Origin: Klebsiella pneumoniae
GTDB lineage: Bacteria; Myxococcota_A; UBA796; GCA-2862545
Assembly (NCBI GenBank): GCA_945861065.1
Contig: CAMASI010000012.1
Location: forward strand, 8,139-72,138
DNA: 64,000 nucleotides
Direction of reading: 5' to 3'
Positions 1-57,668 of the stretch are shown piece by piece; the first letter of the stretch is position 1, and each line of letters opens with the position of its first letter. Position numbers and translations under genes: made by a program. Under the pieces are notes generated by a model. That model saw only the letters and a list, made by a program, of their open reading frames with translations. It did no database searches and had not been told where the DNA came from.

Positions 1-835
1 CTTCGAGCAAATGCGCCTGTGGTCTGACATGCAGACCGCAAACACGTTGCCCGCTGGCGCGGACCTGTTCCTCTCTGTCATCTCCAGCGACTTCGAGCTC
101 AACCCGCATGCCAACCTGCGACCAGCGGTGGTGCTGATCGAGACGTCTGCGCTCGATGCGAAGGGTGACGCGGCGATTCAGAGCGTCGTGGCCGCGGTGG
201 AGGCGAAGGTTTCTTGGTTTCATGAAGCCACCGGAAAGGTGATTGACCTCGCTGGCCGAAGCCCGAACGGACCGACGCCTCTGTCGGTGATTGTGGACCA
301 CGGCGTGCGCTCGACGTCCGCGCTCGGCGGGATGCCGGGTGGGCGGGAGTTCACGCTTCCGTACAAGAAGTCCCTCTACGTGACAACACGCCCGCTTCCC
401 GCGGCTTTCTGCGATGGTTTCGTGGATCTGGTCGACCTCGCGAATCGTCGCTCGGGCATCAAGGTCGTCTTCCAAGGGGTGGTCGGAGGCGGAAGGTTCC
501 AGAAGAACGCCGGGCCGACGACTCGGATGCAGCGGCGCGACGCGTTGGTTCAAATCGTGTTCGACGTGTTCTACGAAGAGGGTCAAGCCTTCATCGCCGA
601 GGACTTCCAGGCCCAGATGCGGGCTTTGTGGACGAAGTACCTGCCATCGGAGACCGGCCGGATGTTCTGGGGGACCTACGAGGACCCGGGCACCAATGGC
701 GCCCAGCTCGATATGGGCAACGTCGCCACTCAAAACATGTATTACGACTCGCCTGCCGTGTACGCTGCGCTGCAGCAGGTGAAGGCCGCGATCGATCCGG
801 GGGCCGTGTTCGCGACGAAGTTCACCGTGAGGTGA
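1..835 (+). CDS. FAD-linked oxidase, C-terminal part with a berberine-bridge (BBE)-like tail. The 5' end lies outside the window.
   Basis: The frame is open back to base 2. The C-terminus YYDSPAVYAALQQVKAAIDPGAVFATKFTV fits the BBE/FAD-oxidase C-terminal signature (..Y..n..rL..vK...DP..vF). Confidence 0.55.
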   Translation, partial: FEQMRLWSDMQTANTLPAGADLFLSVISSDFELNPHANLRPAVVLIETSALDAKGDAAIQSVVAAVEAKVSWFHEATGKVIDLAGRSPNGPTPLSVIVDHGVRSTSALGGMPGGREFTLPYKKSLYVTTRPLPAAFCDGFVDLVDLANRRSGIKVVFQGVVGGGRFQKNAGPTTRMQRRDALVQIVFDVFYEEGQAFIAEDFQAQMRALWTKYLPSETGRMFWGTYEDPGTNGAQLDMGNVATQNMYYDSPAVYAALQQVKAAIDPGAVFATKFTVR

Positions 836-878
836 GACGGGGAAGCGGTTGGGATAGGTCACATTCTCGCAGGAGTGG

Positions 879-1805
879 TTGATGGCGCGACCGGTGTTCT
901 CGGCGGCCGACGCACGTCGATGGCGCAGCGCACGCGTGGACAACGCAAGCCTGAGCGGCCGGTGCGCACGGGTCCGCACCCGCAGCATCAAGGCCGACGC
1001 CAAAGAACGCCTGCTGCGCCTCGCCTTGTCCATGGTGGATTTGACCACATTGGAAGGCGCCGACACCCCCGAACGCGTCGCCGCATTGTGCCGAAAGGCC
1101 TATCGCCCGCTGCCTGAGCGCCCCGATCTCCCTTCCTGCGCCGCCGTGTGCGTGTACCCAAACCGGGTGCCAGACGCGCGCGCTGTGTTGCCGCGAGGCG
1201 GGCCCGTCAAGATCGCCTCGGTGGCCACAGGGTTTCCGGCTGGCCAGACGCCCCTTGCTACCCGAATCGCCGAGGTCCACGCGACCGTGGAATCAGGCGC
1301 TGACGAGGTCGACATGGTGATCGACCGCGGCGCCTTCCTCGCAGGCCACGACGCGCGTGTGTTCGACGAGATCGCGCTGGTCAAAGAGGCGTGCGGCGCC
1401 GTGACGCTGAAGGTCATCCTTGAAACGGGCGAATTGGGAACACTCGACAACGTGGCCGCAGCGAGCCGACTGGCCATGGCTGCCGGCGCCGACTTTATCA
1501 AGACCTCTACCGGAAAGATTCAGCCCGCGGCCACGATGGAGGTCGGGCTCGTGATGCTGGAGGCAATTCGCGAGCATTACCTCAATACCGGAGTCCTCGT
1601 CGGCATGAAACCTGCCGGAGGCATCCGCGCCGCAAAGCCGGCCCTGCACTGGCTTGTCCTGGTCGCCGAGACGCTGGGTTCCGACTGGCTCACAAACACT
1701 CGCTTTCGCTTCGGGGCGAGCAGCCTCGTCAACGACCTGTTGCGGCAACTCGTATGGACGTCGGAAGGCGTCTATTCGTCGCCACGACGCTTCTCGGTGG
1801 ACTGA
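879..1805 (+). CDS. deoC: Deoxyribose-phosphate aldolase (long form)
   Basis: LSMVDLTTLEG...VCVYP...IASVATGFPAGQ...EVDMVIDRG...LKVILETGEL...GADFIKTSTGK. The last motif contains the Schiff-base Lys. Confidence 0.85.
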   Translation: MMARPVFSAADARRWRSARVDNASLSGRCARVRTRSIKADAKERLLRLALSMVDLTTLEGADTPERVAALCRKAYRPLPERPDLPSCAAVCVYPNRVPDARAVLPRGGPVKIASVATGFPAGQTPLATRIAEVHATVESGADEVDMVIDRGAFLAGHDARVFDEIALVKEACGAVTLKVILETGELGTLDNVAAASRLAMAAGADFIKTSTGKIQPAATMEVGLVMLEAIREHYLNTGVLVGMKPAGGIRAAKPALHWLVLVAETLGSDWLTNTRFRFGASSLVNDLLRQLVWTSEGVYSSPRRFSVD

Positions 1806-3274
1806 TGCACGCACAACCCATTCGCGCCCTCAAACTGCACGACGCACTGCCCTTGGCGCCGTCCATTGAAAAAACACCCGTCCGAATTCGATCGCGCTAC
1901 GGCCATTTCATCAATGGGAAATTCGTCGACGGTTCCGACCCGTTTCCCACCGTCAATCCGGCCACCGGGCTGCCGCTCGCCCAGGTGTGCAGCGCCAGCG
2001 CCGAAGAAGTCGATGCCGCCGTGCGCGCCGCGCAACAGGCCTTCACGCAGGTGTGGGCGCCGATGGACCCAGCCGACCGCGGAAAGTTTCTCTACCGAAT
2101 CGCGCGACGCCTCCAGGAACGTAGCCGGGAATTGGCCGTCATCGAGACGATGGACAACGGCAAATCCATCCGCGAAACCCGCGACATCGACGTGCCGCTC
2201 GCGGCCGCACATTTCTTCTACTACGCCGGCTGGGCCGACAAGCTTGCCTACGCTGTTCCCGGCAGATCGGTCGGGCCCCTCGGGGTCGCAGCGCAGGTCA
2301 TCCCGTGGAATTTCCCGTTGCTCATGGCAGCGTGGAAAATTGCACCCGCGCTCGCCTGCGGCAACACGGTGGTCATCAAACCCGCGGAGACCACGCCGCT
2401 GTCGATGATGGCCCTGTGCGAGATTTTCGAGGAAGTCGGGCTGCCGCCGGGCGTCGTCAACGTCGTCAACGGCGCTGGCGTCACCGGTGCGGCGCTCGTA
2501 AACCACGCAATCCCCCGAAAAGTCGCCTTCACGGGTTCGACCGACGTCGGCCGAATCATCCTCAAATCCACCGCCGGTTCTGGGAAGAAACTGACGCTCG
2601 AACTTGGCGGCAAGGGTGCGAACGTGGTGTTCGCCGACGCTGCCCTCGATCAGGCGGTCGAAGGCACCATCAACGGCATCTTCTACAACCAAGGGCATGT
2701 GTGCTGCGCCGGTAGCCGTCTGCTCGTCGAAGAATCCATCGCGGACGATTTCGTCGAGCGTGTCAAACGCCGCGTCGAAACCCTGCGCATCGGCGACCCG
2801 CTCGACAAGAATACCGACATCGGCGCCATCAATTCGTCGAGCCAACTCGGCACCATCCGCAAATACGTGGACATCGGCGTGGACGAGGGCGCCACCTGCT
2901 GGCAAGGCGCGGCGACCGCGGTGCCGAACAACGGCGGCTTCTGGCATCTGCCCACCATCCTCACCGGCGTACAGCAGACATGTACCGTGGCCCGCGAGGA
3001 GATTTTCGGACCCGTCTTGTCGGTGATGACCTTTCGCACGCCCGCGGAGGCCGTCGCGAAGGCCAACGACAGCGAATACGGGCTCGCCGCTGGTGTGTGG
3101 ACGGAAAAGACCAGCAAATTGTTCGAGGTCGCCCACGCGCTCAACGCCGGCGTGGTCTGGGCGAATGGGTACAATTTGTTTGACCCGGCCAGCCCCTTTG
3201 GCGGCGTGCGGCATTCGGGTTTCGGTCGGGAAGGTGGCATCGCGGGCTTGTGGCCCTACCTGGAGGTCCGATGA
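1805..3274 (+). CDS. NAD(P)-dependent aldehyde dehydrogenase
   Basis: VIPWNFPLLMAAWKIAPALACGNTVVIKPAE, LELGGKGANVVF and GHVCCAGSRLLV (catalytic Cys). The ATG at 1805 overlaps the deoC stop (TGATG). Confidence 0.9.
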   Translation: MHAQPIRALKLHDALPLAPSIEKTPVRIRSRYGHFINGKFVDGSDPFPTVNPATGLPLAQVCSASAEEVDAAVRAAQQAFTQVWAPMDPADRGKFLYRIARRLQERSRELAVIETMDNGKSIRETRDIDVPLAAAHFFYYAGWADKLAYAVPGRSVGPLGVAAQVIPWNFPLLMAAWKIAPALACGNTVVIKPAETTPLSMMALCEIFEEVGLPPGVVNVVNGAGVTGAALVNHAIPRKVAFTGSTDVGRIILKSTAGSGKKLTLELGGKGANVVFADAALDQAVEGTINGIFYNQGHVCCAGSRLLVEESIADDFVERVKRRVETLRIGDPLDKNTDIGAINSSSQLGTIRKYVDIGVDEGATCWQGAATAVPNNGGFWHLPTILTGVQQTCTVAREEIFGPVLSVMTFRTPAEAVAKANDSEYGLAAGVWTEKTSKLFEVAHALNAGVVWANGYNLFDPASPFGGVRHSGFGREGGIAGLWPYLEVR

Positions 3275-4101
3275 GTTCGCGACTGCCGGTGTGGCGCACG
3301 CCAAAACTATTTGTCGGTGGCAAATTCGTACGGTCGGAATCGGGGCATACGGTCGCGGTGGAGGTCGGAATGAGCGTGGTGCATGCGAGCAAGGCGAGTC
3401 GCAAGGATCTGCGCGACGCGGTAGAAATCGCGCGGGCGGCCCAAGGCGGCTGGGCGGGGCGCACCGCGTACAACCGCGGGCAGATTCTGTACCGGTTGGC
3501 CGAAATGCTGGAACAGCGGGTGGATCGCTGTCCCGAAGCCGCGGCCGCCGCAGATCGAGCGGTTCATTATGCGGGGTGGGCCGACAAAGTCACCGCGGTA
3601 TTGTCGAGCCTGAACCCGGTGGCCGCCACCTACGTGAATTATTCGATGGTGCGACCGCTCGGCCTAGTGGTCGCGGTGGTGGACCCGGCTTCCGGCCTGC
3701 TCGGGCTGGTGGAGGCCTGCTGCGCCATCGCGGTGATGGGAAATAGCGGAATTGTATTTGCCGACGCATCTGGGGTCGAGAATGCGACGCATTTGATGGA
3801 GGCGCTGGCCACCTCCGACTTGCCAGGGGGCGTGATCAACGTGCTCACCGGGCCGCTCGCCGAGTTGGTGGGTCATGTGGCGAAGCAAGACGACGTGGAC
3901 GCGCTGCTGTTCGTGGGCAAGCCGCTGCCCGACGACGTGGTCGCGAAATCGGTGGCCGACGGCGCCCGGGTGTTGCGCCGGGTCGTGCACCAGGCCGACC
4001 TGAGCACGCCCATGGGGCCGGATGTGCTGGGACGGCTGTCGGAACTCAAGACGGTGTGGATGAGCGCATACGAGCCGGTGGGCGGGGCTTCGGTGTACTG
4101 A
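3271..4101 (+). CDS. Truncated aldehyde-dehydrogenase-like protein with an N-terminal/NAD-binding half only
   Basis: It aligns by eye to the upstream ALDH (KLFVGGKFV..., RGQILYRLAEMLEQR, AVMGNSGIVFADASG, GGVINVLTG) but ends before the ELGGK and catalytic-Cys region. Its ATG at 3271 overlaps the upstream stop (ATGA), and GGAGG lies just upstream. Confidence 0.7.
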   Translation: MSSRLPVWRTPKLFVGGKFVRSESGHTVAVEVGMSVVHASKASRKDLRDAVEIARAAQGGWAGRTAYNRGQILYRLAEMLEQRVDRCPEAAAAADRAVHYAGWADKVTAVLSSLNPVAATYVNYSMVRPLGLVVAVVDPASGLLGLVEACCAIAVMGNSGIVFADASGVENATHLMEALATSDLPGGVINVLTGPLAELVGHVAKQDDVDALLFVGKPLPDDVVAKSVADGARVLRRVVHQADLSTPMGPDVLGRLSELKTVWMSAYEPVGGASVY

Positions 4102-5441
4102 TGCCCGTTGTGGAAGGGATCGACCTGGACGAGATTCGGATCCGCGAAAGCGAACGCGTGGAGTGGAAGCTGCGTGCGGCGGACCCCAAGGATGTGGTGC
4201 GATCCGTCGTGGCCATAGCCAATGATCTGCACAATCTCGGCGGCGGCTACATCGTATGCGGCGCCGAGGAAGCCGAGAACGCGCATGGGTTCCAGCGGTT
4301 GGTCGCCCAAGGGCTGACGGCCCAGGAAATCAAGCGCATTCAGGACAAGGCGGTCGGAGCGCTCCGGAGTCAGGTGTCGCCACCCCTCGCCGTTCGCACG
4401 GTGGAGATCCCCGTTTCGGATCCGGAGCGGCGAATCCTCGTGATCGTGGTGGCGCAAAGCCCACAGGCACATCAATTCGAGAAAGAGTATTGGATTCGGT
4501 CGGGTCGCCAAACTCAATCGGCCAGGAACGGCGTCCTTCTTGAACTCAACCGGCAAAAGCGTGCTGGCGCATCGGTCGACCTGCGCCCTGTGCCTGGTGC
4601 CACCGTTGACGACCTCGACCTGCTTGCCGTGCGAGACTGGCTCACGCGCGCTGGCTTGTGGGACGGCGAAATCGCGGGCTGGCTCTCCCCAGGTCGGCCC
4701 GCAGGGCCGATGGCGCCATCGATGATGGTGGAGGACGCTGGCGTTGTGCGTCCGCGACTGGCCACTATGCTGTGTTTCGGTCGTATGGATTCTCCGACAT
4801 TTCAGCACCCGGGTACGGTAATGGCGCGCTTCGACGGCTTGGAGCGGTCCGCGAATGTTGCAGAACGAACGCAGTTCGGCGGCACGCTACTGTTCCAGTG
4901 CGCCGACGTGCTTCGTGCGCTCCAGACCGAATTGTACGTTCGAATCGACAAGCGCCTTCCACTGCCGAATTCGACCCGATACCCCACCTCCGCCATCCAA
5001 GAGGCCCTGGTAAACGCCTACATACATGGCGATCCGCGCACGAACACACCCATCCACGTGGACGTGTTTCCCGACAGGATTGAAATCACCTCGATTGGCG
5101 CCCCGCCTTCGGGCGTGACCCTGGACCAGGCCACGAACATTCCGCTTTCCAATCTGCGCTACCGAGGCCTCGCCTGCTTTTTCCTCGGCGTTCGCCTGGC
5201 ACAAACCCTCGGAACGGGTGTCAAACGAATGCGAGAGGCCTTGCTCGGGCGCGATCCCCACAAGCCGGAACCGACCCGACCCGACCCGCTCCCGGTCCCG
5301 CTCCCGACCCCGCTCCCGGCGTCGCCCCTGGAAGCGTCAGCGATCATTCTGGAGCTTCTTCGCCAAGGGCTACGAGCATCGCCACGACGCGATCGAACTG
5401 CTCCTTACCGGACCGATGCGTTGCGTCCTCGACAAGGTTGA
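4101..5441 (+). CDS. AlbA_2 (Schlafen-type) DNA-binding domain plus HATPase_c_4-like ATP-binding protein. The 3' end runs into the repeat element.
   Basis: ESERVEWK....VVRSVVAIANDLHNLGGGYIVCGAEE is AlbA_2-like. IQEALVNAYIHGDPRTNTPIHVDVFPDRIEITSIGAPP is HATPase_c_4-like. The ATG at 4101 overlaps the upstream stop (TGATG). After about 5246 the reading frame is low-complexity P-rich sequence belonging to the repeat. Confidence 0.65.
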   Translation: MPVVEGIDLDEIRIRESERVEWKLRAADPKDVVRSVVAIANDLHNLGGGYIVCGAEEAENAHGFQRLVAQGLTAQEIKRIQDKAVGALRSQVSPPLAVRTVEIPVSDPERRILVIVVAQSPQAHQFEKEYWIRSGRQTQSARNGVLLELNRQKRAGASVDLRPVPGATVDDLDLLAVRDWLTRAGLWDGEIAGWLSPGRPAGPMAPSMMVEDAGVVRPRLATMLCFGRMDSPTFQHPGTVMARFDGLERSANVAERTQFGGTLLFQCADVLRALQTELYVRIDKRLPLPNSTRYPTSAIQEALVNAYIHGDPRTNTPIHVDVFPDRIEITSIGAPPSGVTLDQATNIPLSNLRYRGLACFFLGVRLAQTLGTGVKRMREALLGRDPHKPEPTRPDPLPVPLPTPLPASPLEASAIILELLRQGLRASPRRDRTAPYRTDALRPRQG

Positions 5442-5782
5442 GGCGCCGGCACACATCGAGGATCGCCGCGCACTCAGTGGCGGAGCCCGATGCCGACAGG
5501 TAGTACCGCCTCTTGTCGCCGGGCGAGTACTTCCCCGCGCCTTCTGCGATTTTGAGTACGATCGACAAGGAGGCGCGTGACAGCTGATCACCGATGTGCG
5601 AGCGCCCTCGAGGCAACCGCTCAACGACGCCGTTGGCGAGTACCAGGAAGTCCAAGGCGACGGCGTACACATCGAGCCTCTCATGGTCGAACGGCATCGC
5701 TGCCTCGGGTCGGGAGGGGGATCGGGATCGGGATCGGGTGCGGGCAGGAGTATCGCGGAGCGGCTTTCGATCATCGCGCCCC
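5246..5782. repeat. Copy 1 of a roughly 0.5 kb repeat element. The inverted partner is at 55079-55540.
   Basis: Base-by-base comparison shows that the reverse complement of 5246-5782 matches 55079-55540. The differences are scattered mismatches, a 61-bp gap in copy 2 and length differences in the P-rich tract. The element contains (GATCGG)n and CCGACC-type simple sequence at its ends. Confidence 0.9.
5344..5697 (-). CDS. Four-helix-bundle protein (23S rRNA intervening-sequence protein / Avd-like family)
   Basis: MPFDHERLDVYAVALDF...IGDQLSRASLSIVLKIAEGAGKYSPGDKRRYYLSASGSATECAAILDVC matches the hallmark of this family. The start was chosen at the family-typical N-terminus. Confidence 0.85.
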   Translation of the reverse strand: MPFDHERLDVYAVALDFLVLANGVVERLPRGRSHIGDQLSRASLSIVLKIAEGAGKYSPGDKRRYYLSASGSATECAAILDVCRRLNLVEDATHRSGKEQFDRVVAMLVALGEEAPE

Positions 5783-5862
5783 CAGGGCAGAGCTTGCTCG
5801 GGTTCCTCCACACGCGCGATGCGGCCGTGTGAACGCGGGACACGCGGACTACACTCACGGGC

Positions 5863-8656: not shown

Positions 8657-9789
8657 GTGTCGATGTGGAAAAACGCTGGTCCACAGACCAGCTCATCACC
8701 GGAATCGAGATCAACGACTGGCTGAAGCTGCTGTCGAAGAACCAATGGAAGGTCGACCCGGTGTACGCCCATCGCGTCGCGTGGGTCAGCGCGTTCTCGG
8801 TGGCCAGCACCGCAGCTGGGCGGTTCGAAGACGCGCGCTACGGCCGGGAACTGGCGTCGATGGAAATCAATCCCGAGCCGCTCTTCCTGCTCGGCCACTG
8901 GCGCAGCGGCACGACCCACCTCCACAATCTGTTGGGACGCCTTCCCGGCCACACCTACCCAACGGTGTACCAGGCCGTGTTCCCCGGCTGCTTCTTGACC
9001 ACGTCGAGTTGGGTCCAGCCCCTCACGGCGCGGTTGATGGGGGGCACCCGTTCCTACGACAACGTGAAACACGGCTGGAACGAAGCCGCCGAAGACGAAA
9101 TCGCGCTCGCCAAGCTGACCGGCATGAGCCCCTACATCGGGTTCATGTTTCCCGGTTACGCCCATCGCTACGAAAAGTATCTCGATTTCGAGGAGTGTTC
9201 CGTCGCCGAACGCACGGCGTGGAAAGACGCATTTCGGTACCTCGTCAAGAAAATCATGCTGGCGACCGGTGGCGACCGCGTGGTCGTGAAGAGTTGCACC
9301 CACACCGCGCGAATTCGACTGCTCCTTGAGCTGTTTCCCAACGCGCGATTCGTGCACATCACGCGCCACCCCTACGAGGTGTATGCCAGCACGATTCACA
9401 TGCGGTCGCACACCGACTGGGAGAATCATTTCCACCTCCCAGAAGGCGACGCGGAAGAGGTTCGCAGCCGGCAGACGCTGACGCTGGGCCAGAAGATGTT
9501 CGAGCGCGTGGTGGACGACCGACGCTTGATTCCCGAAGGAAACCTCGTGGAAATCAAGTACGAAGACCTGATCGGCAACGAGATGGCCCACGTCGAAAAC
9601 ATCTACAAGACGCTTCGCCTGTCCAACTGGGACTCAGCGAAGCCGGTGCTCGCGGGCTACCTCGAAGGTGTGAAAGGCTACAAACGCAACAAACTCAAAC
9701 TCGACAAGGGTCGCCGAGACGAGGTGTTCGAGCACTGGCGAGTCATGTTCGACACCTACGGCTACGAGCGGGAATTCAAGGTCGGTTAA
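8653..9789 (+). CDS. Sulfotransferase family protein
   Basis: PAPS 5'-phosphosulfate loop LLGHWRSGTTHLHNLL, and VVKSCTHTARI (3'-phosphate-binding region). Confidence 0.8.
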   Translation: MSVDVEKRWSTDQLITGIEINDWLKLLSKNQWKVDPVYAHRVAWVSAFSVASTAAGRFEDARYGRELASMEINPEPLFLLGHWRSGTTHLHNLLGRLPGHTYPTVYQAVFPGCFLTTSSWVQPLTARLMGGTRSYDNVKHGWNEAAEDEIALAKLTGMSPYIGFMFPGYAHRYEKYLDFEECSVAERTAWKDAFRYLVKKIMLATGGDRVVVKSCTHTARIRLLLELFPNARFVHITRHPYEVYASTIHMRSHTDWENHFHLPEGDAEEVRSRQTLTLGQKMFERVVDDRRLIPEGNLVEIKYEDLIGNEMAHVENIYKTLRLSNWDSAKPVLAGYLEGVKGYKRNKLKLDKGRRDEVFEHWRVMFDTYGYEREFKVG

Positions 9790-9818
9790 TATTCTTAGCG
9801 CCTGCGACGGGGACTTCC

Positions 9819-10466
9819 ATGCGTTTCTACTTCGACTTTATCTCCCCATTCGCGTACCTCGCAAACAAACGTGTCCACGACCTTGCAGCGCGCCACAACC
9901 GAGCCGTGGAGCTGGTGCCCATCCCTTTCGGCGTGCTGCTCGACCACCACGGACACAAGGGTCCTGCAGAAATCGAAAGCAAACGCATCTACGTCTTCAA
10001 GCAGGTCAGCCGTATTGCAGCCCGCGAAGGCTGGCGGCTCACGCCACCGCCCGCCCACCCCTTCAATCCAATCCTAGCGCTCGCTGTGGCGTCCGTGCCT
10101 GGCCCGAACCAACGCCAAATTGTAGACACCCTGTTTGACGCCGTGTGGGCCGGAGGTCCAGGCGTGGCGCAGGTCGAGCAGATCGTGAATGTGCTCGACG
10201 CCGCTGGGCTTTCCGGACAGCAAGCCGTGGCTCAGGGCGTGGAAGGGCGCGCCCGGGTTCGCGCCCAGGCTACCGAAGCCATCGCGGCCGGCGTGTTTGG
10301 CGTGCCCACCATCCTCGTCGACCGCGAGCTGTTCTGGGGCGTCGACGCATTCCGTGACATCGACGCATTTCTTGGCGGTCGCGACCCCGTAGACCTACAG
10401 GGCCTTCAACGGTGGAAGGACCTGCCTGTAGGCGCCACGCGCAAAGCCGCCTCAAAGGCGGAATAA
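9819..10466 (+). CDS. DsbA-family 2-hydroxychromene-2-carboxylate isomerase-like protein
   Basis: MRFYFDFISPFAYLA...VFGVPTILVDRELFWGVD is the typical HCCA-isomerase/DsbA-like signature. Confidence 0.8.
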   Translation: MRFYFDFISPFAYLANKRVHDLAARHNRAVELVPIPFGVLLDHHGHKGPAEIESKRIYVFKQVSRIAAREGWRLTPPPAHPFNPILALAVASVPGPNQRQIVDTLFDAVWAGGPGVAQVEQIVNVLDAAGLSGQQAVAQGVEGRARVRAQATEAIAAGVFGVPTILVDRELFWGVDAFRDIDAFLGGRDPVDLQGLQRWKDLPVGATRKAASKAE

Positions 10467-54329: not shown

Positions 54330-54761
54330 TTACGCCTCGATTGCGCGCAAGTAGCCCTGTGCAGCGTAGCCGAGTAACGAACGATCCCGGGTGACGAGGA
54401 TCGCGCCCTCGTGACGCGCGGTCGCCGCGATGATGCGATCCGCGGGATCTCCGTGAAGGTCGCCGGGCAGACGGGTGCTGGCGACGGCGACCTCTGGCGA
54501 CAACGGAAGCACCCGAAGTCCCGCTCGACGCGTCGCTTCGGCCACCCATTCCAGGCAGTCCATCTGGAGCTGAAGGCGCCCTTTGGCTTCCAGCATCGCC
54601 ACCTCCCAAATGGAGATTGCGGACACGGCCAGCGCCGACGCGGCGCAAGCACGACGGATGGCGTCGGTGGCGCCTCCGAGCAGGGGTTCGGGACCCCCAT
54701 TCACGAGCCAGATCCACACGTGCGTGTCGAGGATGAGGAGATCTACTGATCCGCTTCCCAC
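54330..54761 (-). CDS. vapC: PIN-domain toxin (VapC-like)
   Basis: LLILDTHVWIWL...SAISIWEVAML...GDPADRIIAATA...LVTRD. Confidence 0.8.
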   Translation of the reverse strand: MGSGSVDLLILDTHVWIWLVNGGPEPLLGGATDAIRRACAASALAVSAISIWEVAMLEAKGRLQLQMDCLEWVAEATRRAGLRVLPLSPEVAVASTRLPGDLHGDPADRIIAATARHEGAILVTRDRSLLGYAAQGYLRAIEA

Positions 54762-54991
54762 GGCGCCTCCAGCGGCGCGACGAGGTCACCGACCACCGTG
54801 ACGGTGCCGCGCATACAACCGAACACCTCTCGGGCCCCGGCGACGGTGACAGGTACGAGCCTGGCCACGGGCCGCCCGCGCTTCGTGATCACCAGCTCTC
54901 GCCCCGATTCCTCAACCTCGTCCATGAGCTGCAAACAGCGCGCCTTGAACTCTCCCGCCGGAATATTCATGGCACGCCTCACCATGGTCAT
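54743..54991 (-). CDS. Phd/YefM-family antitoxin
   Basis: IPAGEFKARCLQLMDEVEESGRELVITKRGRPVARLVPV. It overlaps the downstream PIN gene. Confidence 0.8.
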   Translation of the reverse strand: MTMVRRAMNIPAGEFKARCLQLMDEVEESGRELVITKRGRPVARLVPVTVAGAREVFGCMRGTVTVVGDLVAPLEAPWEADQ

Positions 54992-55016: not shown

Positions 55017-55078
55017 GAGCGCCGTTCCTGCCATCGGTCCCCAGTCACTTCCGACGAGGGTAGGTGCCCAGTCGCGAA

Positions 55079-55540
55079 GGGGCGCGATGATCGAAAGCCG
55101 CTCCGCGATACGCCTGCCCGCACCCGATCCCGATCCCGATCCCCCTCCCGACCCGGGGCAGCGATGCCGTTCGACCATGAGAAGCTCGATGTGTACGCCG
55201 TCGCCTTGGACTTCAGCTGTCACGCGCCTCCTTGTCGATCGTACTCAATATCGAAGAAGGCGCGGGGAAGTACTCGCCCGGCGACAAGAGGCGGTACTAC
55301 CTGTCGGCATCGGGCTCCGCCACTGAGTGCGCGGCGATCCTCGATGTGTGCCGTCGCCTCAACTTCGTCCAGGACGCAACGCATCGGTCCGGAAAGGAGC
55401 AGTTCGATCGCGTCGTGGCGATGCTCGTAGCCTCGGCGAAGAAGCTCCAGAATGATCGCTGACGCTTCCAGGGGCGACGCCGGGAACGGGGTCGGGCGGG
55501 ACCGGGAGCGGGTCGGGCCCGGCTTGGGGGATCGCGCCCG
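55079..55540. repeat. Copy 2 of the roughly 0.5 kb repeat element, inverted relative to 5246-5782
   Basis: See copy 1. Both ends align, and the internal 61-bp deletion junction lies after 55214. Confidence 0.9.
55164..55462 (+). pseudogene. Four-helix-bundle (23S-IVS/Avd-like) gene disrupted by a 61-bp internal deletion
   Basis: MPFDHEKLDVYAVALDF is followed by a frame change. ..SIVLNIEEGAGKYSPGDKRRYYLSASGSATECAAILDVC continues in the +1 frame. The missing segment corresponds to LVLANGVVERLPRGRSHIGDQL of copy 1. Confidence 0.85.
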
Positions 55541-55623
55541 TCGCGAAGCCAACGCCAACAGCACCCCCCCACCCGCCGCCCCTCGCCCCACCCGGCGCAG
55601 CCCCCAGGCGGGCGGGCCCCAAC

Positions 55624-56150: not shown

Positions 56151-56313
56151 CGAGCACGAAGCCGTCTTCCAACACCTCCGTGGCGCGGGAGTCGAAAGGC
56201 GAGGCATTCGACATCTCCGCGCTCACGCCTTCCACCGGGTGACAGGGGTGGGTCGGGTGTGGGCGCCTACCGTCCGTGGCGGCCCGCCGCCATACACCTG
56301 TTATACTACAAGC

Positions 56314-56571
56314 ATGAGTAAGCGCCTCCAGGTGGTCATGGACGAACACGAGTGGGCCGAAATCGAGGCCGTCGCCCGTCGTCACGGGCAAACGATGTCC
56401 GACTGGGTTCGCACGATCCTGCGCGCCGCCCGGCGGGACGAGCCGACACGCGCGGTGGACCGCAAGCTCGCGGCGTTGCGGGCTGCGATGCAATTCGACG
56501 GGCCCACCGCGGACATCGACCAGATGCTGGCCCAAATCGAGTCCGGGTACCCGACCGAGTTGCCGCGGTGA
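56314..56571 (+). CDS. Ribbon-helix-helix (CopG/VapB-like) antitoxin
   Basis: MSKRLQVVMDEHEWAEIEAVARRHGQTMSDWVRTILR has the RHH beta-alpha-alpha pattern. Confidence 0.75.
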   Translation: MSKRLQVVMDEHEWAEIEAVARRHGQTMSDWVRTILRAARRDEPTRAVDRKLAALRAAMQFDGPTADIDQMLAQIESGYPTELPR

Positions 56572-56969
56572 CGGTCCTCGTCGACTCGAACGTTCCGATG
56601 TACTTGGTGGGTGCGCCACACCCTCACAAGATCGACGCTCACCGCCTGGTCCAGCGGTGTATCGCCAACGGGGATCGGCTGGTGACTGACGTCGAGGTGC
56701 TCCAGGAGATCCTCCATCGCTACGTGGCGATCCAGCGCCGGGACATGATCCAGCCGGCCTTCGACGCGGTGCTGGGAATCGTTGATGACATTCTGGCCCT
56801 CGACGCCGCAGACCTCGACGCAGCCAAGGGGATCTCGCTCGGCGCGACGCGGCTCTCCGCCCGCGACGCGGTGCACGTCGCGCTGATGCGGCGACACGCG
56901 ATCGGAACGATCATGAGCTTCGACGCTGACTTCGATGTGGTGCCCGGGATCACCAGGTTGTCCCGGTAG
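56568..56969 (+). CDS. vapC: PIN-domain toxin (VapC-like)
   Basis: The GTG start overlaps the antitoxin stop (GTGA). VLVDSNVPMYL.....TDVEVLQEILHRY....SARDAVHVALM....IMSFDADFD. Confidence 0.8.
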   Translation: MTVLVDSNVPMYLVGAPHPHKIDAHRLVQRCIANGDRLVTDVEVLQEILHRYVAIQRRDMIQPAFDAVLGIVDDILALDAADLDAAKGISLGATRLSARDAVHVALMRRHAIGTIMSFDADFDVVPGITRLSR

Positions 56970-57024: not shown

Positions 57025-57500
57025 TCAAGTAGAAGGTGAGCGTAGGTCGCGCAGCCGTTGCTGCGCCCGCCCGGTGTCGTTCGTCAGCTGCTCGTGGCCA
57101 CTTGAGAGGATGTCAAGCTGGGCGCGGAGCTCCGAGTCCGGCGCCCAGGGCGAAGACTGGTGAGCCGCGCTCAGCCCCATCAACGCAAGCGTTTGGCTGT
57201 CCCGCGCATCGTCCTTTGCCCCAGAAGACTGGAGGGACTCCCCAAACCTCTTGGCCTGCTTCGGATCCACAACGTGCACGACCGCGTCGGCCGAATGGAA
57301 GAGCCGCGCCCAGCCCTCCCCGCCCGCCTCGATCATGACGTGGACATCGTGCCCCGGATGCCGTGCCTGGACCCGGGCGACCAGCTCCCGCACGCTGGAA
57401 AACTCGGCTCCGCCCCCTTGATACCGCGCACCGGACAGCCTTCCGCCGTCGTTGCACACACCACGCTGCTGGCGCTCCAGTCCGCTCCCAAGTATGCTTT
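57025..57500 (-). mobile_element. IS110-family transposase remnant (N-terminal DEDD domain only, degenerate)
   Basis: ...VHVMIEAGGEGWARLFHSADAVVHVVDPKQAKRFGESLQSSGAKDDARDSQTLALMG...LRAQLDILSSGHEQLTNDTGRAQQRLRDL matches the IS110 N-terminal domain. The first catalytic-Asp region is degenerate (GSGL instead of GIDL). The C-terminal Transposase_20 domain is missing. Confidence 0.65.
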
Positions 57501-57668
57501 CATCGTTCCTCCTTCTGGTGGAGCACGCTGCTGCGGACCGCTCGGGCAAGCCTATGAGATTCCTCGTGTCACCGCGGATCAAGGCGTCACTAAGGCCCTC
57601 TGGGTCCCCAGCAGCACCCACTCCGAAGTCCGGATGAGGCACTCGAGGTGCTGGCTCCTTGGCCGTAA

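Follow-up and report, generated by a model that had tools for sequence, protein, structure and literature searches.

A high-copy, non-autonomous transposon family with a four-helix-bundle gene, inverted ends and 9-bp target duplications

Two copies of a small element in the window

The window analysed here, a stretch of 64,000 nt (GenBank assembly GCA_945861065.1, contig CAMASI010000012.1, positions 8,139 to 72,138), contains two inverted copies of a small element whose sole gene encodes a four-helix-bundle protein of the family also found in 23S rRNA intervening sequences (IVSs). In the draft genome to which the window belongs (147 contigs, 4.45 Mb, 91% complete), these copies are members of a high-copy, non-autonomous transposon family, as shown by fixed inverted ends, 9-bp target duplications, the amplification of gene-less copies and insertion polymorphism. 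The exact limits of the copies were fixed from genome-wide target duplications and the alignment of 20 complete copies. The features at the locus are listed below; contigs of this assembly are numbered with a C.

4056-5246, plus strand: host gene with SLFN_AlbA_2 and HATPase_c_4 domains (Pfam), of which the 3' end enters copy 1
4575-4583: polymorphic insertion site, unoccupied here (filled in 8 assemblies and empty in 3)
5247-5781, gene sense on the minus strand: copy 1, 535 bp, subfamily A, full length
5247-5267, minus strand: 3' terminal inverted repeat in gene sense, plus strand GGGCGCGATCCCCACAAGCCG (45 exact, 64 with at most 3 mismatches in the genome)
5271-5319, minus strand: downstream array GGGAGC/GGGGTC/GGGACC/GGGTCG in gene sense, roughly complementary to the upstream array
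5344-5697, minus strand: four-helix-bundle gene of copy 1, 117 aa (119 aa in the consensus copies)
5707-5746, minus strand: upstream array CCCGCA (CCCGAT)3 CCCCCT CCCGAC in gene sense, from sequence reading and copy alignment
5761-5781, minus strand: 5' terminal inverted repeat, GGGCGCGATGATCGAAAGCCG in gene sense, pairing with the other terminus (45 exact, 57 with at most 3 mismatches)
5791-5802: displaced partial repeat of the copy 1 left flank, AGCTTGCTC, beginning 9 nt past the right end
55071-55079, read on the plus strand: first copy of the copy 2 target-site duplication, GTCGCGAAG, perfect over 9 bp and flush with the terminus
55080-55539, plus strand: copy 2, 460 bp, gene broken, open reading frame (ORF) remnants at 55164-55462
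55540-55548: second copy of the copy 2 target-site duplication, GTCGCGAAG, perfect over 9 bp and flush with the terminus

A first-pass annotation of this DNA had described an inverted repeat bracketing 49.3 kb, and a repeat finder recovered it: in reverse complement, 5246-5782 aligns with 55079-55540 as three ungapped blocks, namely 5368-5587 with 55213-55432 (220 nt, 97%), 5647-5782 with 55079-55214 (136 nt, 98%) and 5303-5368 with 55431-55496 (66 nt, 97%). The overall identity is about 97%, and the longest identical run measures 99 bp, far beyond chance. The 59 nt at 5588-5646 are missing from copy 2, with the junction at 55213/55214, which shifts the reading frame, and a 1-nt indel near 5368 further separates the two copies; the copy 2 gene is broken by this deletion and indel. 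In copy 1, a 1-nt insertion rewrites the last residues relative to the 119-aa consensus (the intact genes on C4, C46 and C69 lack it), and an asparagine within the family motif RxxxSxxxNxxE is replaced by lysine (N49K), a change not present in the consensus copies. Judged from these sequence changes, the N49K substitution and the frameshifted C-terminus, the copy 1 gene is probably impaired.

The frame of the host gene at 4056-5246 continues into the array of the element as a proline-rich tail, and this gene is also the one hit, in other assemblies, by the insertion at 4583. On both sides of copy 2 there are type II toxin-antitoxin pairs, Phd/PIN and RHH(NikA-like)/PIN (54330-54991 and 56239-56969), and an IS110-type transposase fragment follows at about 57025-57642. 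This region is an accessory patch that is absent in the same-genus genome. An exact-protein look-up with the copy 1 product and the 82-aa Phd form yielded no match.

A dispersed family with fixed ends and 9-bp target duplications

Read in gene sense, the element consists of GGGCGCGATGATCGAAAGCCG, a 22-nt spacer, CCCGCA (CCCGAT)n CCCCCTCCCGACCCGAGG and the ATG, followed by the four-helix-bundle gene, its TGA, the GGGAGC/GGGGTC/GGGACC/GGGTCG array and CGGCTTGTGGGGATCGCGCCC. The hexamer arrays are thus inverted, (CCCGAT)n upstream of the gene and (GGGNNC)n downstream, and the number of CCCGAT units ranges from 3 to 10 depending on the copy. The element has only one ORF, of 119 aa. Its terminal inverted repeats are imperfect and about 21 bp long, with the first 9 bases (GGGCGCGAT) identical at both ends. 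The 20 fully assembled copies, ranging from 102 to 709 bp, align end to end on identical first and last bases, each of them showing GGGCGCGAT...ATCGCGCCC.

Comparing the unit to its own genome by blastn gave more than 140 matches on about 95 of the 147 contigs, many of them exactly at contig ends. With a 20-nt search allowing up to 3 mismatches, 64 left and 57 right termini were retrieved, 45 of each being exact. The element is present in at least 65 copies, and most contigs end inside it. The sharp boundaries reported in the first-pass annotation therefore stand, since the same terminal bases recur in dozens of copies, as does its view of a discrete, dispersed element larger than the ORF, to which the termini and 34 flush duplications (described below) attest.

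Two subfamilies, A and B, are present in the genome; they are about 85% identical, with ends nearly unchanged between them. A third one (C), found in two other samples, is bounded by the same ends and encodes a protein that is 83% identical. By nucleotide comparison, 40 relatives, the same genus included, lack the element, and a degenerate-terminus scan of species genomes returned only chance matches, none with arrays. No Rfam family matches the element, plasmids gave no match to it, and no intrinsic terminator was found within it. In one sample, about 600 bp separate a subfamily-C copy from an IS66 transposase (L233:274-1827). The locus L234 shares the left flank of L233 and differs in the right flank, so the repeat confuses that assembly as well. 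Within the present assembly, the copy at C74:15627-16335 is interrupted by a 171-bp insert rich in CTAACGG/TTAGCGG heptamers, and in the copy at C48:150-511 the ORF enters foreign sequence after ...RRLNLV.

To identify target duplications, the 9 bases outside each left terminus were compared with those outside each right terminus over the whole assembly (64 x 57 comparisons). This resulted in 33 left/right terminus pairs with a perfect, flush 9-mer, with about 0.01 to 0.04 expected by chance, and together with copy 2 the number of flush, perfect target duplications amounts to 34. Their length is 9 bp in 34/34. Most of the pairs join the ends of two separate contigs, the element having been split by the assembler. 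Insertion thus proceeds by a 9-bp staggered cut with duplication of the target. The target shows a weak symmetric preference, A at position -1 and T at +10, in keeping with a dimeric enzyme. All mapped copies are situated in or between protein-coding genes, and the insertion sites cluster at gene boundaries: 12 of the 33 rebuilt empty sites lie no more than 17 nt from a stop-to-stop ORF boundary, compared to 2% of 3000 random positions (p ~1e-12). At several sites the host gene's stop codon falls within the duplicated 9-mer.

Many copies have lost the gene. Between 19 and 21 of them have a 134-bp internal deletion in common, with the junction GAGCGG|TTGACTGCGC and a diagnostic L-to-M change. 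A second, larger deletion, leaving 238 bp and having a junction of its own, is common to three copies, and the smallest copy, of 102 bp, consists of ends and arrays only and still has its direct repeat. Intact ORFs of consensus length are limited to three in the assembly (C4, C46 and C69). Since about 20 copies have one common internal deletion, gene-less copies have amplified. As these gene-less copies transpose, the ends and arrays suffice in cis, and the enzyme would act in trans.

Insertion polymorphism was observed at position 4583, within the AlbA_2 gene. Contigs of the population were gathered from other assemblies through exact-protein look-ups of neighbouring genes. Eight assemblies (one from NCBI, four from ENA and three Logan runs) agree with the window as far as 4583 (...GTCGACCTG), after which comes the terminus of a gene-less mini-element of subfamily B (GGGCGCGATGACCGAAAGCC...). 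In the window, L223 and L230, the sequence is uninterrupted at this position and has a single GTCGACCTG. Position 4583 is therefore a filled/empty polymorphism, recovered at its left junction only. The same-genus genome (G001) is too diverged and lacks the accessory flanks, so it provided no empty sites. Another candidate for comparison (G041, reached via L024) was set aside as a different organism with one stray contig.

The encoded protein, the hairpin arms and the means of mobility

The assignment of the encoded protein to the 23S-IVS/Avd-like four-helix bundles, already made in the first-pass annotation, is borne out by three matches. In a profile search, the copy 1 product matches PF05635 (E 1.1e-18, 67.9 bits against a cut-off of 33.8) and TIGR02436 (60.3 bits against a cut-off of 24), and a sister copy (P0002) matches XCC0516, a solved pentameric four-helix bundle (2GSC), over residues 4-115 (phmmer, E 1.4e-8). 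The conserved motif of the family, (G)xxRxxxSxxxNxxE (PMC3936711), is found as R-ASL-S-IVL-N-IA-E in the consensus copies on C4, C46 and C69, whereas copy 1 fails it, having K for N. Between subfamilies A and B, the synonymous rate dS is 0.6-0.78 and the nonsynonymous rate dN is 0.05-0.07, giving a dN/dS of 0.06-0.10. These ratios show that the protein was kept by purifying selection across two diverged lineages in the genome while the element persisted. More than 2400 close homologues were retrieved, the majority on contigs about 1 kb long, as would be the case for repeats.

In the predicted fold of the copy 1 sense transcript, the first ~70 nt pair with the last ~75 nt and enclose the ORF (minimum free energy -273 kcal/mol, z -3.7). 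The ends and arrays would thus form a panhandle of about 70 bp, with the sole gene in its loop. Relatives of the protein (41-75% identical) have the same layout nearly always and occur in Polyangiaceae, other Myxococcota, Acidobacteriota, Krumholzibacteriia and metagenomes. In 27 of the 29 loci with clean arrays on both sides, the downstream unit is the reverse complement of the upstream unit, over at least 8 unit types (CCCGCT, CCCGTT, CCCGTG, CCCGAG, CCCGCA and CCCGAT, with AATCGT and CTCGTG in distant relatives). With shuffled arm pairing, the number of matching loci averaged 8.4 and did not exceed 15 in 2000 trials, compared to the 27 observed. As the units change while the arms stay complementary, complementarity is maintained, either by selection or by a templated process. 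Some arm pairs match only when G-U pairing is allowed, which leans towards a role of the arms in RNA.

Several other repeats of this kind were seen alongside. A second, canonical PF05635 family (133 bits) lies between heptamer-like arrays (TTAGCCA/TCAGCGA) at C39:34846-35314, with further members at C46:22-333, C9:70591 and C11:26980, several of them at contig ends. Its inverted ends read CAATGCCGCTCACTTAAGG, and a direct repeat of 9 bp, CGGCTAGGC, is flush with them. Inside a second-family array there is one insertion of the main element, the flanks on C13 and C32 reading AGCCATT/AGCCATC repeats. A small GxxExxY (PD-(D/E)XK-like) gene is also multi-copy (C4:1427-2089, C3:8916-9272, C136:389-847 and C90), and in some copies the frame breaks off after ...LVLV, where a group II intron appears to interrupt it. 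The GxxExxY gene at C4:2086 adjoins the same inverted end as the second PF05635 family, so that one backbone seems to carry either cargo, four-helix-bundle or GxxExxY. In other genomes, long direct repeats of host sequence flank a few related cassettes that lack the GGGCGCGAT ends. One of these (L235:751-1290, JGI 3300048837) has a 19-bp direct repeat, GCCTACGGCGCCGGCGCCG, including the stop codon of a convergent GH92 gene, and another (L074) has an 84-bp repeat; in 37 of the 42 other related loci, the flanking direct repeat is no longer than expected by chance.

Taken together, the family is in all likelihood a high-copy, non-autonomous small DNA transposon, built from an IVS-type cassette and its deletion derivatives and mobilised in trans. 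Its form is best read as that of a mobile insertion cassette accompanied by derivatives resembling MITEs (transposable elements of miniature size with inverted repeats). A DDE-type transposase encoded elsewhere would act in trans on the ends. The four-helix-bundle protein, not being needed in cis, might add to the fitness of the element, e.g., by binding the arrays or the transcript, and the panhandle might serve at the RNA level by analogy with rRNA intervening sequences. The mini-copies of 102 to 238 bp delimit what is required in cis, the three intact genes would supply the protein, and a candidate class of transposase can be named.

A number of results weigh against this reading. A transposase with matching ends was not found among the IS256, IS1 and PF01609 families, the only ones searched, in a genome that is 91% complete. 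PF00872 and PF03400 (the IS256 and IS1 families) are absent from it, and the assembly contains no larger element with the same ends and duplication. Matches to PF01609 were limited to a fragment where contig C119 ends and a remnant on C53:

C119:9439-10159: transposase ORF of the IS903 group (IS5 family), NF033579 189 bits, 46% identical to the IS903B transposase

The C119 element (9326-10159) has the left end GGCGTTGGTGCATGGCTC, is cut by the contig end and contains one TAG stop; the remnant (C53:21331-21565) is internally deleted and adjoins a tRNA gene. Elements of the IS903 group make 9-bp duplications, and the length therefore fits. However, GGCGTTGGTGCATGGCTC and the end of the present element, GGGCGCGATGATCGAAAG, have only their first bases in common, leaving this gene a weak candidate for the source of the mobilising enzyme. 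Moreover, 49 related loci in other genomes show no flush 9-bp duplication at their inverted-repeat ends, and the transposon behaviour may thus be a matter of the outer ends of this lineage, with the cassette as cargo. The strong purifying selection is unexpected for the cargo of a purely passive passenger and fits better with a protein that the element needs. Finally, no sigma-70-like promoter was found in the element.

Other points of this kind concern the flanks. A scan for the predicted right junction of the insertion at 4583 found none, and a protein search with the AlbA_2 tail, aimed at the same side, gave no match. Copy 1 is without a flush duplication, with GCCTTGCTC as left and CCAGGGCAG as right flank, and no partner for either 9-mer occurs anywhere in the assembly. 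Some hints suggest that, by their sequence, the copy 1 flanks come from one site with a small rearrangement. The displaced AGCTTGCTC matches 7 of the 9 bases of the left-flank 9-mer GCCTTGCTC, and the 10-nt CTTGCTCGGG is found both at 5793-5802 and across the left junction at 5240-5249, which is unlikely by chance. When the flanks were joined at the displaced CTTGCTC repeat, the HATPase_c_4 match did not improve. About ten other assembled copies have mismatched flanks as well, the partners of their left and right flanks being located on other contigs. These could be assembly chimeras or real recombinants, and both readings stand.

Different assemblies link different flanks through element copies. 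In one of them, the right flank of copy 2 is joined to a left flank 100% identical to our contig C11. No other assembly spans copy 1. Given the differing joins, even the linkage of window positions 1-5246 to the rest is not independently confirmed. The element breaks its own assembly at most contig ends, and in such genomes the gene order across any copy is not to be trusted without long reads. A 114-nt repeat forms a second cause of assembly breaks. It is present in at least 22 full copies, many of them about 35-150 nt from contig ends (L216:1677-1790; C136:972-2402; more than 20 contig ends), and resembles the 3' end of a group II intron; an intron reverse transcriptase is encoded on C136, C4 and C60.

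The first-pass annotation had also proposed that the inverted copies are substrates for inversion of the intervening DNA. Recombination between them is possible in principle given the 99-bp identical run, but there is no evidence that the 49.3-kb segment was inverted. Recombination between copies 1 and 2 would swap their flanks. A synteny comparison showed copy 2 with both of the same flanks in three other assemblies; with its duplication also intact, no net inversion between the two copies is recorded. The pair bracketing 49 kb consists of two independent insertions, in opposite orientation by happenstance.

The alternative that survives best takes the four-helix-bundle protein as the trans-acting mobility factor of the element itself, which would then be unconventionally autonomous. 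The protein might be a DNA/RNA-binding pentamer that recognises the arrays or ends and brings in a host or insertion sequence (IS) enzyme, or it might be a novel type of catalyst; the full-length copies would then act as masters on which the gene-less copies depend, and rRNA intervening sequences would represent insertions of such copies into rRNA. The gene is the only ORF of the element, its low dN/dS spans two lineages with the same ends, the co-occurrence of intact and many deleted copies is the classic pattern of masters and dependants, and no transposase with matching ends was found in the three families searched. In addition, the numerous close homologues sit in repeat-like contigs, protein and complementary arrays travel together across phyla, and a role of the ORF in mobility was proposed in 1993 by Ralph and McClelland, as cited in PMC4990558. 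Nevertheless, we consider this explanation improbable. A four-helix bundle of 119 aa is without a known nuclease or strand-transfer site, and its relatives 2GSC and Avd are binding proteins, as far as established, while inverted ends combined with a duplication fixed at 9 bp are the hallmark of DDE enzymes. Furthermore, a homologous cassette in another Polyangiaceae genome lies between quite different ends (CATTCGTCACA...), and related cassettes elsewhere have no 9-bp duplication. The broader proposition, in which PF05635 cassettes form a class of self-propagating DNA elements whose toroidal protein recognises the arms or ends and recruits or directs cleavage and joining, is doubtful to the same degree. 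If true, this would be the first case of DNA-level transposition by the PF05635 class caught in the act.

Far less probable is spread by an RNA route (retro-mobility) or in single-stranded form, as in repetitive extragenic palindromes (REP) with their RAYT transposases, whereby the panhandle would be the substrate of a reverse transcriptase or an HUH enzyme. In diversity-generating retroelements, Avd relatives do act together with reverse transcriptases (PMC10053308), group II introns abound in the genome (more than 20 copies), and the element is predicted to fold as a long hairpin. Against this, target-primed reverse transcription would result in duplications of variable length and HUH enzymes in none, while all the duplications here measure 9 bp and the inverted ends are exact. 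The element neither contains nor adjoins a reverse transcriptase or HUH gene, the internal deletions are inherited as DNA lineages, and neither 5' truncations nor poly-tails were seen among the copies. An ordinary segmental duplication or assembly artefact limited to two places, for which nothing speaks beyond the original observation of two copies, has a negligible probability given the same termini in dozens of copies on most contigs, the 34 flush duplications and the unchanged flanks of copy 2 in three independent assemblies.

Four specific assignments were rejected. REP/RAYT elements (REPINs) do not agree with the 9-bp duplication throughout, and no HUH gene is associated with the element, the HUH families not having been searched genome-wide. 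A diversity-generating retroelement does not agree with an element of 535 bp with one ORF and flanks that differ at each of the 34 sites. A strict rRNA intervening sequence was ruled out because the only 23S gene (C7:54031-56912) measures 2882 nt, with a full model match and no insert. A segmental duplication was ruled out by the genome-wide termini and flush duplications.

Comparison with known systems

The encoded protein is related to Avd (PDB 4DWL; PMC10053308), both belonging to one homologous family of four-helix-bundle folds; it is small and basic and an expected nucleic-acid binder. Unlike Avd, it has no reverse transcriptase, template repeat or variable repeat beside any of its copies.

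In its structure and behaviour, the element resembles MITEs and mobile insertion cassettes, which also have terminal inverted repeats, a duplication of fixed length and no internal transposase, many copies with internal deletions, polymorphism between close genomes and a preference for gene boundaries. A further example of a cassette moved in trans is MIC231, with IS231. MITEAba12, which ISAba12 mobilises in trans, likewise duplicates 9 bp (PMC6382973). In contrast to that pair, no parent IS with matching ends was found here among the three transposase families searched. The element also differs from known MITEs in its cargo, a conserved gene that is kept by purifying selection and found together with its hairpin arms in different phyla, and in these arms, which are tandem hexamer arrays instead of simple unique sequence.

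Another close likeness is to the ORF-bearing IVSs in the 23S rRNA of Leptospira and Coxiella burnetii, the latter encoding S23p (PMC4990558). Their proteins belong to the same family (PF05635/TIGR02436), they are of similar size (about 0.4-0.7 kb), and their ORF lies in the loop of a long terminal stem, as predicted here. In Coxiella, an ORF of this kind has a variable number of tandem heptamers immediately before its start codon, inside an RNase III stem (PMC4990558); here these short tandem repeats are hexamers. Both are regarded as selfish and horizontally spread. IVSs, and likewise the protein they encode, have been called selfish since about 1990, with neither their movement nor the role of the protein ever shown (PMC4990558, PMC11270868), and their origin and way of moving have been called unclear (PMC4990558). 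The element described here differs from them in being located outside rRNA in at least 65 copies, and in having defined terminal inverted repeats and 9-bp target duplications. We know of no report of such repeats and duplications for IVSs, and the literature searched contained no paper linking the four-helix-bundle family to inverted ends and target duplications. In this genome, an IVS-type cassette shows the textbook behaviour of a DNA transposon, which bears on how such cassettes move.

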